Sequence record: PQ819470.1
Length of the DNA: 64,000 nt
Source of the DNA: Escherichia phage ev_rybdy3
Reading direction: 5' to 3' (one strand)
Part shown: piece by piece, positions 14,167 to 16,114 of the stretch
Layout: each line of letters starts with the position of its first letter
Position numbering within the stretch: the first letter of the stretch is position 1
Made by a program: the position numbers and the translations under genes
Notes under the pieces: generated by a model
Told to the model about the DNA's origin: nothing
The model's database searches: none
What the model saw: only the letters and a program-made list of their open reading frames with translations

Positions 14167-14470
14167 GCTTAATCTTTCTCCTGTATTGTGCCGTGGTCAT
14201 GCCTATGGTCACAATCTATCTGATGCTTTAAATCCTTCCTGTAAGCCTCCTAGTGAGGCTTTTCTATTTTCTAAGGTGATTGTATGCCTTACTCCCTTTT
14301 AGCTCGTTGTAATGCGTTTTAGGTCGCCTGTTATTGCTTTACAAGCCGTTTCCTGTGATGTATCACGCGCAGCCGTTCCTTTACCTCCTGATTTCTTCCG
14401 GTGTCCTACCAACAATAAAATAAATTCCTTTAGAAAACAGTGAGATGAAAAATAATTTGAAAAAAGGGTA

Positions 14471-14498
14471 TTGACATGATTTTCCTGTATAGTAATAT
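14471..14498 (+). promoter_or_regulatory. Strong sigma70-like promoter
   Basis: TTGACA, 16-nt spacer, TAATAT. Confidence 0.55.
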
Positions 14499-14670
14499 GA
14501 ATCCCGTAGTAAGCAGTAAGCAACAAGAAGTAAAACTCCTCGATAGGTGATTAGCATCACGGTAAAAGGCTTCAACGAGGAGCGGTAGGAATACCGACAG
14601 TAAGACGCACAATGAGGTGCTACGCTCTTTAAAAATCAGGCTAGAAAGTGAAAATATTTTAAAAATAGTA

Positions 14671-14699
14671 TTGACACCGAAAATAGCCTGATTCATAAT
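14671..14699 (+). promoter_or_regulatory. Strong sigma70-like promoter
   Basis: TTGACA, 17-nt spacer, CATAAT; near-duplicate of the promoter at 15162. Confidence 0.55.
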
Positions 14700-15004
14700 A
14701 AGCACTCAGTCAGCGATGACTTAAAACATCCCCGCTCTTTAAAAATATGATTTGTCTTACAGGTGGCGGTGACGTCATTACTATAAGGCGCCCAGTTAAT
14801 CGGTAGAATTGATTCCTGATTCATACGTGACGCAGGCGGACAATAAGCAATATCAATAAGCCTTATTTGTTCGATACTTTCAAAAGATTAATGCTTGAAA
14901 GCGTACTAGATTCCTAAAAGACAAATCAGACTTATCATCTTGCCCTTTCGCATAGATTCACGCGAGATAAGGGAAAGGAATTAAAAGAAGATGATAAAAA
15001 GAGT

Positions 15005-15032
15005 TTGACAAGCTAACACGATGTGTTAAGCT
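15005..15032 (+). promoter_or_regulatory. Sigma70-like promoter (weaker -10)
   Basis: TTGACA, 16-nt spacer, TAAGCT. Confidence 0.35.
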
Positions 15033-15161
15033 GTGAATGTAGTAATCGCTCTTTAACAATATGAATCATGGGTTAAGCCTCACCGCTTAATCTTCAACCC
15101 AACAAAGCGGGTTGATATATCCTCCCAATAGCGGGAACGACGAAAAAAGATTAAAAAGTGG

Positions 15162-15190
15162 TTGACAGCGAAAACAACATGATTCATAAT
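15162..15190 (+). promoter_or_regulatory. Strong sigma70-like promoter
   Basis: TTGACA, 17-nt spacer, CATAAT; near-duplicate of the promoter at 14671. Confidence 0.55.
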
Positions 15191-16114
15191 GAGCACTCAC
15201 TAAGCAAATCACCGCTTCAGTGAAAAGCGTAACAACGGCTAACAGTTGCATAGTGTGAGAAAGCACACTGATAGATTTACCGCTCTTTAATAATTTAAAC
15301 ATTCTCCTATATCGGTTGAATATGCTTGATGATAATAACCATCGGAAAGCATACCAGATAAAACGGCGTAAAACTCCCTAGATTATCAGGGTAAACAGTT
15401 TTACATTCCCTTTCTGGAAAAGTCACCACTGATAAACGGATTCATTGAGTACACGCAACGGCTTAAGCTAATCGCCCACGGTTAAGGGTAGCGGCGGCCA
15501 TCGCTAACACGGTGCTACAGTGAAAGAAGTTAATCAGGGTAGGCAAGTCCGACGAATTAACGCTCAATTGAGAGCGGCGGGGAGTGGTTAAAAGTGGCAA
15601 ATTGCTATTTAACAATAAGGTTTAGTGTGAACGTTTACGATGTGAACGGCTTGAGATTCATCACAAGATGAAAGTACATAGTCGGTTTATGTAGTAAACT
15701 TGCCGAAAGATATAAAACGTCAGAACACTAGACGGTCAATGACTCTTTCACAATAGCATCCCGTTGTGGGCGATGGCTAGTGATTGAGAGTTGATACAAA
15801 AGGATAGGCGAGAGCGAAAGCAAAGTAGACGATATTGCCGACGGTTACAATAAACGTAACTAATTAGAGTCGGACGCACTGCCTTATTGTGATGATTGAT
15901 CATCGCTATCAGGTCGGCTTCGTTTATAGCGACTAATTAAAGATACCAGATGAAACATCACGGATAAGGAGGCGGCAAGGTTAACTCCTGATAAGACCGC
16001 CTCGCTTACCTGTAACTACTTAAAAAGTGAGTGGTTAGAGATAAGTTAATAGTGACTTAAACAAGCTCATAGAGAGCGGGGCAATAGCGCCCTTACAATT
16101 GAAAGGTGAATATC

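Follow-up and report, generated by a model that had tools for sequence, protein, structure and literature searches.

Positions 14170-16110 of the 64,000-nucleotide (nt) window analysed here, from the phiEco32-like Kuravirus Escherichia phage ev_rybdy3 (PQ819470.1), are an un-annotated spacer with homologues of phiEco32 genes 125 and 124 on either side. This region is probably an antitermination cassette that resembles a ribosomal RNA (rRNA) operon, an early unit that produces a new large phage RNA. It contains tandem promoters of the host type, and the motif repeated behind them, CGCTCTTTAANAAT, is by sequence match the boxA of the Escherichia coli rRNA (rrn) operons, the loading site of NusB and S10. 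A first-pass annotation of the window described the promoters and the motif. The main content that it overlooked is a conserved RNA, supported by covariation, that follows the last boxA.

Tandem promoters and their boxA elements

The promoters of the region are all on the plus strand. P1 (14449-14498) has an A/T-rich upstream tract, the -35 hexamer TTGACA (14471-14476) and the -10 hexamer TAATAT (14493-14498) at a spacing of 16 nt, and it matches 10 of the 12 consensus positions. P2 (14649-14699) combines TTGACA (14671-14676) with CATAAT (14694-14699) at 17-nt spacing and matches 11 of 12. P4 (15162-15190; TTGACA-17-CATAAT, also 11/12) is a near-duplicate of P2, as had been noticed in the first pass, with 84% identity over 44 nt. 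P3 (15005-15032) has a perfect -35 hexamer, TTGACA, and a weak or decayed -10 hexamer, TAAGCT, with TG before it. The earlier claim of four near-consensus promoters thus holds for 14471, 14671 and 15162 (10-11 of 12) and fails at 15005. The A+T content of the 22 nt upstream of P1-P4 is 73-91% (82% for P1 and 91% for P2).

These promoters are kept in related phages, of which 16 were examined; alignments and motif counts cover 17 phages. P1 is kept in phiEco32, SU10, Paul, EK010 and EP335, and P4 is present in all 17. The counterpart of P3 is strong (TTGACA-16-TAGAAT) in EK010, SU7, TH43, NC-B and TH42. Sigma70-type hexamers at 16-18 nt spacing that are conserved in relatives are found at the predicted P1, P2 and P4. 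Table S2 of the SU10 paper lists P2 (as a predicted early promoter) and P4, as well as P3 with the remark 'alt -10?', and the SU10 authors describe phiEco32 as alike in P2-P4. Since P2-P4 were already predicted for SU10, the promoters are not new. The arrangement of promoter and boxA recurs in 16 of 16 related phages with three to five modules per phage, and it is the upstream modules that vary in number.

The shared motif that had been reported downstream of the promoters is present at 14623, 14733, 15047 and 15281, always on the plus strand. For comparison, the boxAs of the rrnB leader and of the 16S-23S spacer were taken from the E. coli K-12 MG1655 sequence. The rrnB leader has the order boxB hairpin, TGCTCTTTAACAATTTATCAG, boxC, and the spacer boxA is TGCTCTTTAAAAATCTGG. 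BoxA1 (14623-14636; CGCTCTTTAAAAAT) is of the spacer type and lies at about +118 from the P1 start; as GCTCTTTAAAAATC it is identical to the rrnB spacer boxA over 14 nt. BoxA2 (14733-14746) is again CGCTCTTTAAAAAT, at about +27 from the P2 start. BoxA3 (15047-15060) reads CGCTCTTTAACAAT, and its 12-nt core GCTCTTTAACAA (15048-15059) is the exact E. coli consensus. BoxA4 (15281-15294; CGCTCTTTAATAAT, then TTA) is of the rrn leader type. In 8 of the 16 related phages its counterpart is GCTCTTTAACAATTTA, a 16-nt exact match to the rrnB leader boxA, and one module of SU7 carries GCTCTTTAACAATTTATC, an 18-nt match to the leader form with a hairpin that ends 2 nt upstream, as in rrnB. All four copies of the window have at most one mismatch (0-1) to the 12-nt E. 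coli consensus GCUCUUUAACAA.

These matches are specific in several respects. Four copies of the 9-mer GCTCTTTAA are present in the 64 kb, where 0.78 are expected, and all of them are on the plus strand within one 660-nt stretch; no further exact copy exists elsewhere in the window. Four copies anywhere in the window were reached by 2 of 100 shuffles. A logo of 68 copies from the 17 phages shows that YGCTCTTTAANAAT is common to every copy, always on the transcribed strand. Positions 1-9 and 11 of boxA are invariant in 68/68, and position 10 and the flanks vary. The one position that varies freely is also the point of difference between the leader and spacer forms of rrnB. The AAT at positions 11-13 is almost invariant without being required by the search pattern. 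Positions 12 and 13 each show one minor exception, and 62 of the 68 copies have T at position 13. Because the motif is identical over 14-18 nt to the rrnB boxAs of E. coli, it is not terminator-like. By its sequence it is a predicted protein-binding site on RNA, an antiterminator and not a terminator. Of the roles suggested for it in the first pass, the protein-binding site is thus favoured by the identity to rrn boxA and the terminator-like element falls away.

The boxA copies lie +8 to +118 from the predicted starts, ahead of 0.9-1.6 kb without open reading frames (ORFs). They are found only behind promoters that precede untranslated RNA; in contrast, the promoter at 12006, directly ahead of coding genes, has no boxA. 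This strong promoter (12006-12033; TTGACA-16-TATAGT) is upstream of the gene 128 homologue, near the point to which the phiEco32 genome end maps (about 11.3 kb). At 48688, deep in the cluster of plus-strand genes, a perfect 12/12 sigma70 consensus (TTGACA-17-TATAAT) is present on the plus strand with no boxA after it. The leader that P4 would transcribe upstream of boxA4 (15197-15280, plus strand) forms three hairpins with compensatory changes in their stems among the 17 phages. The last of them (15252-15269; AGUGUG-AGAAAG-CACACU) is boxB-like and ends 11 nt before boxA4, and its pairing is kept through compensatory changes.

Other sequence relationships were observed around the boxA copies. 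The 3' flank of boxA is complementary to the spacer and -10 hexamer of the next promoter in two places (14624-14643 with 14684-14703; 15057-15070 with 15178-15191), and boxA could therefore be paired in read-through RNA. No compensatory support for this pairing was found at either site. A hairpin from boxA1 to P2 is predicted in most phages, and here too compensatory changes were not found. The -10 and discriminator sequence CATAATGAGC resembles the reverse complement of boxA.

A large structured RNA behind the last boxA

The distance from the last boxA (15281) to the ATG of gene 124 (16115) is 835 nt, and it is 828-838 nt in all 17 phages. This stretch folds into a large RNA. Its minimum free energy has a z-score against shuffled sequences of -9.47 on the plus strand and -5.96 on the minus strand. 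A sequence-only MAFFT alignment of the 17 sequences (mean column identity 89%) gives an RNAalifold consensus structure of 237 pairs in 37 helices, in which 98.8% of the cells form standard pairs. Changes on both sides of a pair occur in 69 pairs as compared with 31.8±3.3 in shuffles, and none of 500 shuffles reaches 69. When the partners are moved by 1-3 columns, only 5-8 pairs show double changes. Compensatory changes are present in 25 of the 37 helices. G·U pairs make up 11.3% of the paired cells, and only 87.5% would pair on the opposite strand. The proportion of G·U indicates that the structure belongs to the plus-strand RNA and not to the DNA or to an opposite transcript.

The region does not appear to encode proteins. 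The longest plus-strand ORFs within 14167-16105 are 25-43 amino acids (aa) long, so that the first-pass statement that no plus-strand ORF of at least 60 aa lies here is borne out for this interval. Across the 17 phages, the large RNA contains no conserved ORF of at least 25 aa, and its variable sites fall evenly on the three codon positions (126/109/112), without 3-base periodicity. The description of the region as a non-coding block is therefore correct. The nucleotide identity of the large RNA equals or exceeds that of gene 124 in 9 of 10 comparisons (0.90 versus 0.77 for SU7). Compensatory pairing, strand specificity and lack of coding, the generic properties of a structured non-coding RNA, are all found in the large RNA.

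Two domains and a series of hairpins make up the structure, all on the plus strand. Domain 1 (15294-15591) is closed by the helix 15294-15307/15579-15591, which takes in the final base of the 14-nt boxA4 and has its partner strand about 285 nt downstream, and it contains three arms and the hairpin 15561-15576. This hairpin is the palindrome CGCTCAATTGAGAGCG of the first-pass annotation, and it forms in RNA with compensatory changes (pair 288/297: UA in 12 phages, CG in 5). An inter-domain hairpin (15592-15610) follows. GCAAATTGCTATTTAAYAATAAGGTTT (about 15597-15622), which extends from the 3' strand of this hairpin onwards, is the longest segment of the RNA without any variation and includes the boxA-like TGCTATTTAACAAT. 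Domain 2 (15612-15890) has the closing helices 15612-15629/15875-15890 and nested arms. The 3' series (15891-16093) consists of eight hairpins that end just ahead of the Shine-Dalgarno sequence; helices 30, 32, 34 and 37 show compensatory changes. Further upstream, a structured domain of about 190 nt (14743-14933) is closed by the inverted repeat GAUUUGUCUU/AAGACAAAUC. It shows compensatory changes among kuraviruses and also in comparison with the otherwise unrelated phage PJNS034.

Two degenerate boxA-like sequences occur inside the large RNA, namely TGCTATTTAACAAT at 15603-15616, which has one mismatch in its 12-nt core (core start 15604), and a TGACTCTTTCACAAT-like sequence at 15741-15754. 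RNAalifold also pairs boxA4 (15281-15290) with the Shine-Dalgarno sequence of gene 124 (16099-16108) through nine pairs, three of them G·U. This pairing is invariant and shows no covariation, and we do not rely on it.

The large RNA appears to be new. It has no match in Rfam 15 at the gathering threshold, and at E<=10 only four chance-level matches of 15-21 bits to eukaryotic or unrelated small RNAs. No match was obtained to the models of GOLLD, ROOL, OLE, HEARO, introns, RNase P, 6S or transfer-messenger RNA (tmRNA). The two conserved blocks of the RNA gave 0 matches in 185,579 bacterial and archaeal genome representatives; they are present in 5 IMG/VR contigs and 7 metagenome contigs, all from close kuravirus relatives. 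A host origin of the RNA was rejected, as blastn against 5,426 E. coli genomes gave no match. Neither phage 7-11 nor PJNS034 was matched by an nhmmer profile of the RNA.

Boundaries of the unit and its relatives

The unit is bounded by intrinsic terminators on both sides. The upstream terminator (14243-14275, plus strand), a 7-bp G+C-rich stem followed by a T tract, closes the upstream operon (homologues of phiEco32 genes 128-125), and the equivalent site is annotated in SU10 and SU7. The downstream terminator (17037-17072, plus strand) is a 12-bp stem followed by TTCTTTTATC; it lies 22 nt past the stop codon of gene 124, and it is kept in each of the 17 phages. Besides these two, no terminator-like site was found on the plus strand of 14167-17100, either between the modules or after any copy of the motif. 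The unit thus consists of four promoter-boxA modules, the leader RNA and gene 124, in this order, with a terminator at either end. We found no good sigma70 promoter between the 17037-17072 terminator and the next gene (17117).

The gene 124 homologue (16102-17014, plus strand), with the Shine-Dalgarno sequence AAGGTGA and an ATG at 16115, encodes 299 aa and is the only protein gene of the unit. Its product, gp124, belongs to PHROG 13018, where it is listed as of unknown function. Its Pfam matches are all below threshold, no relative was found in the PDB, and a single-sequence AlphaFold model is unusable, with a predicted local distance difference test (pLDDT) score of 50. By tblastn, gp124 is present only in the same ~97 phages as the RNA.

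The region 14170-16110 is 100% identical to that of ev_rybdy8 and 93.6% identical to phiEco32 72791-74727 on the opposite strand. About 100 Escherichia and Shigella phages of the subfamily Gordonclarkvirinae carry a related region, and the large RNA and gp124 are confined to these same ~100 phages. The part retained in nearly all relatives found is 14932-16110. Every gene between about 12 kb and 58 kb of the window is on the plus strand, in agreement with the GC skew, whose sign switches at about these two points. Other stretches of the window without any ORF of at least 70 aa on either strand are 397-1500, 10683-12073, 41339-42026 and 50877-51629. A transfer RNA (tRNA) gene for Arg (anticodon TCT) at 22545-22620 is the sole Rfam or ARAGORN match in the window, and the tRNA/tmRNA scan of the window found nothing else.

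Two phages outside this group were also observed to have long stretches without ORFs. Salmonella phage 7-11, a distant relative, has ~1.05 kb of non-coding leader (8865-9917, minus strand) ahead of gp151, its first early gene, and this leader is more stably folded than shuffled sequences (z = -4.5). It lacks both a boxA of the E. coli type and any similarity to the kuravirus RNA. An undefined antitermination strategy is mentioned in the paper on 7-11. The 65.7 kb coliphage PJNS034 has 1.8 kb free of ORFs (1500-3321) with several strong promoters, two consensus boxAs (2502 and 2710) and a boxA-like GACTCTTTAACAA. It shares the ~190-nt domain (14733-14921 of the window) at 76% identity and is otherwise unrelated.

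The boxA reading for phiEco32-like phages was not found in the literature searched; Savalia 2008 and Pavlova 2012 are outside that scope. The papers on SU10, SU7, 7-11, BASEL and Kuravirus taxonomy mention promoters at most. A survey of structured RNAs in phages covers motifs up to 151 nt only and does not name these phages.

A proposed rRNA-like mechanism and its alternatives

In the rrn system, antitermination involves the elements boxB, boxA and boxC and the factors NusA, NusB, NusE/S10, NusG, SuhB and S4. The boxA RNA is bound by NusB-S10, which together with NusA, NusG and SuhB makes RNA polymerase resistant to Rho on untranslated RNA. BoxA guards long untranslated RNAs, such as rRNA and clustered regularly interspaced short palindromic repeat (CRISPR) arrays, from Rho (PMC7665894). 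We propose that the phage region uses the same system. Past the terminator at 14243, host sigma70 RNA polymerase would start at the four tandem promoters, three strong and one decayed, each of which would put an rrn-type boxA on the transcript. NusB-S10 (NusE) would bind each boxA RNA and, with NusA, NusG and SuhB, would give a fast, Rho-resistant polymerase as for rRNA. The modified polymerase would transcribe 0.9-1.6 kb of untranslated RNA, consisting of small structured domains and then the 835-nt two-domain, multi-hairpin RNA, and would then read gene 124 and stop at the conserved terminator at 17037. Tethered to boxA, the complex probably also assists the closing of the long-range helices, as in rRNA synthesis. 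As a working guess, the RNA is either released by cleavage, building up to high levels early, or serves as the 5' domain of the gene 124 messenger RNA. A stronger version is conceivable, in which the 0.84-0.92 kb RNA (from the P4 start or boxA4 to the start of gene 124) is a new class of large phage non-coding RNA that is made at rRNA-like rates via host logic and acts in trans early, perhaps together with gp124, and not merely as a leader; it might, for instance, sequester a host factor or defence protein or serve it as a scaffold. We lean against this version.

The closest cellular model of the cassette is the rrn operon. Both have tandem strong sigma70 promoters with A/T-rich upstream tracts, and their boxAs agree in 14 nt (spacer type) or 16-18 nt (leader type) and come shortly after a hairpin. 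In both, boxA leads straight into a long untranslated RNA that folds and is closed by a long-range helix, and an intrinsic terminator ends the unit. The phage cassette differs in that it has no sequence similarity to rrn outside boxA, no boxC, and no G+C-rich discriminator as in rrn P1. It also has one boxA per promoter, three to five in a row, and a protein gene comes after its RNA, which is not rRNA.

Among phages, T7 offers the closest model. Its sequence (NC_001604) has CGCTCTTTAACAATCTGG at 812-829, between the A3 start (62 nt upstream) and gene 0.3. This element is not among the features of the record there, and older literature has probably noted it. The early region of T7, which also includes an RNase III site, is alike in having tandem strong host-type promoters (A1, A2, A3) near a genome end, then CGCTCTTTAACAAT and the first early gene. 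T7 differs in its leader of only about 175 nt and in its one boxA, placed behind the last promoter, whereas the phage described here has a boxA per promoter and a structured leader of 0.9-1.6 kb. Given the boxA cassettes in T7 and PJNS034, the promoter-boxA cassette looks like a shared device of lytic coliphages.

More distant parallels also exist. The nut boxA of lambda (CGCTCTTA) is recognised by NusB-S10 and acts on early phage transcripts. It is off consensus and needs a 3' boxB hairpin and N, whereas the boxA described here is full consensus. We found no conserved lambda-type boxB hairpin (5-nt purine loop) within about 20 nt 3' of boxA1-4, and N-like proteins were not searched for; boxA4 runs straight into the domain 1 helix. 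A lambda-type nut site was rejected on the grounds of a full-consensus boxA with no boxB following. GOLLD and ROOL occur in phages and prophages, and with OLE and HEARO they share a length of several hundred nt, many covarying helices and no coding capacity. The RNA described here differs from them in having no Rfam match even at E<=10 and in its place in a 5' leader behind boxA, so far only in Escherichia and Shigella Gordonclarkvirinae. CRISPR arrays and the suhB leader are alike in that a consensus boxA lies between the promoter and a long untranslated transcript and counters Rho (PMC7665894). These loci differ in being chromosomal, with one boxA each. We know of no chromosomal boxA locus of this kind that precedes a large folded RNA of a lytic phage.

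Several points weigh against the rRNA-like cassette. The GU-rich boxC (TGTGTGGG, also written UGUGUGGG) was not found after any of the boxA copies. In rrn, boxB and boxC are not essential. The leader has more G than C and is heavily paired, so that it may already be a poor substrate for Rho, which weakens the need for boxA. To our knowledge, complexes of the rrn type do not pass intrinsic terminators, and the model therefore leaves the expression of genes beyond 17064 unexplained. As the 17 sequences are fairly close (mean column identity as given above), individual helices and any tertiary contacts are provisional. The binding of Nus factors, the resistance to Rho, the chaperoning of the fold and the fate of the RNA are what we infer, and the primary phiEco32 papers outside the literature scope may hold transcript data or an earlier mention. 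Finally, four boxAs exceed what antitermination alone requires.

This excess is the main attraction of a Nus-factor sponge, in which the boxA copies titrate NusB/S10 (and SuhB) from the host rrn operons and lead to an early shut-down of rRNA synthesis. The three to five copies per phage go beyond the need of one transcript, they are perfect matches to the host boxA, and they lie behind promoters of rRNA strength. BoxA RNA over-expressed from a plasmid reportedly competes for NusB. However, every boxA is at the position of a cis-acting site, with a promoter upstream and a long untranslated RNA downstream, and each tandem promoter needs its own downstream site to protect the stretch between modules; T7 manages with one boxA. 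A sponge is compatible with the rRNA-like cassette, and we consider it unlikely. We give the same low standing to a T7-like motor of genome entry, in which polymerase would pull in the DNA from strong host promoters near a putative leading genome end, boxA spares the untranslated first transcripts from Rho, and the RNA is secondary. The array is about 3-4 kb from the right end of phiEco32 and points inward, the leading end of T7 has three tandem early promoters and a boxA close by, and the unrelated phage PJNS034 has a similar cassette. Such a motor leaves unexplained the 835-nt RNA of fixed length with its compensatory changes and the conserved terminator only 2.5 kb downstream.

The remaining explanations are less probable still. 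The large non-coding block, the strong transcription through it and an RNA of fixed length and fold would suit an origin of replication activated by transcription, with the structured RNA as a pre-primer like RNA II of ColE1. This is improbable, as the turning points of GC skew are at about 12 kb and 58 kb and not here, there are no iterons and no repeats besides the boxA and promoter copies, and no particularly A+T-rich unwinding stretch lies downstream of the RNA. The first-pass annotation saw in the region a set of short non-coding transcription units or decoy promoters, for which the motif would be a terminator or a processing site. In its favour, several strong promoters have no long ORF behind them. 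We regard this reading as very improbable, since no terminator lies between the promoters, no hairpin with a T tract follows any copy of the motif, the motif is a host antitermination signal, and the RNA downstream is conserved and folded; the tandem promoters feed one bounded unit. Least credible is a region filled with unannotated small protein genes. Hypothetical proteins are annotated here in GenBank, up to 10 in CHD5UKE1 and one each in NJ01 and Paul, but no ORF of at least 25 aa is conserved in the 17 phages, variation is even over codon positions, and the substitutions compensate base pairs. Examples are the 'cathepsin L-like cysteine proteinase A' annotated within the promoter array of NJ01 (1936-2103) and the genes in Paul (2581-2757), SU7 (1650-1850) and CHD5UKE1 (MZ234028; ten hypothetical proteins). 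Most of these annotations look like over-annotation; the 67-aa ORF of SU7, with a plausible ribosome-binding site, may be a real insertion between modules.

The RNA itself, covariation-supported, longer than 800 nt and conserved in about 100 sequenced Gordonclarkvirinae, appears to be new, and several GenBank records place spurious "hypothetical protein" genes across it. As the predicted first strongly transcribed product of these phages, it is a promising candidate for a role in host takeover or anti-defence. If the rRNA-like reading is true, a lytic phage has copied the whole design of the host rRNA operon, with tandem promoters, boxA, a folded untranslated RNA and a terminator. Antitermination by boxA would then extend beyond rRNA, CRISPR arrays and lambda to early units in several coliphages that are unrelated to one another.

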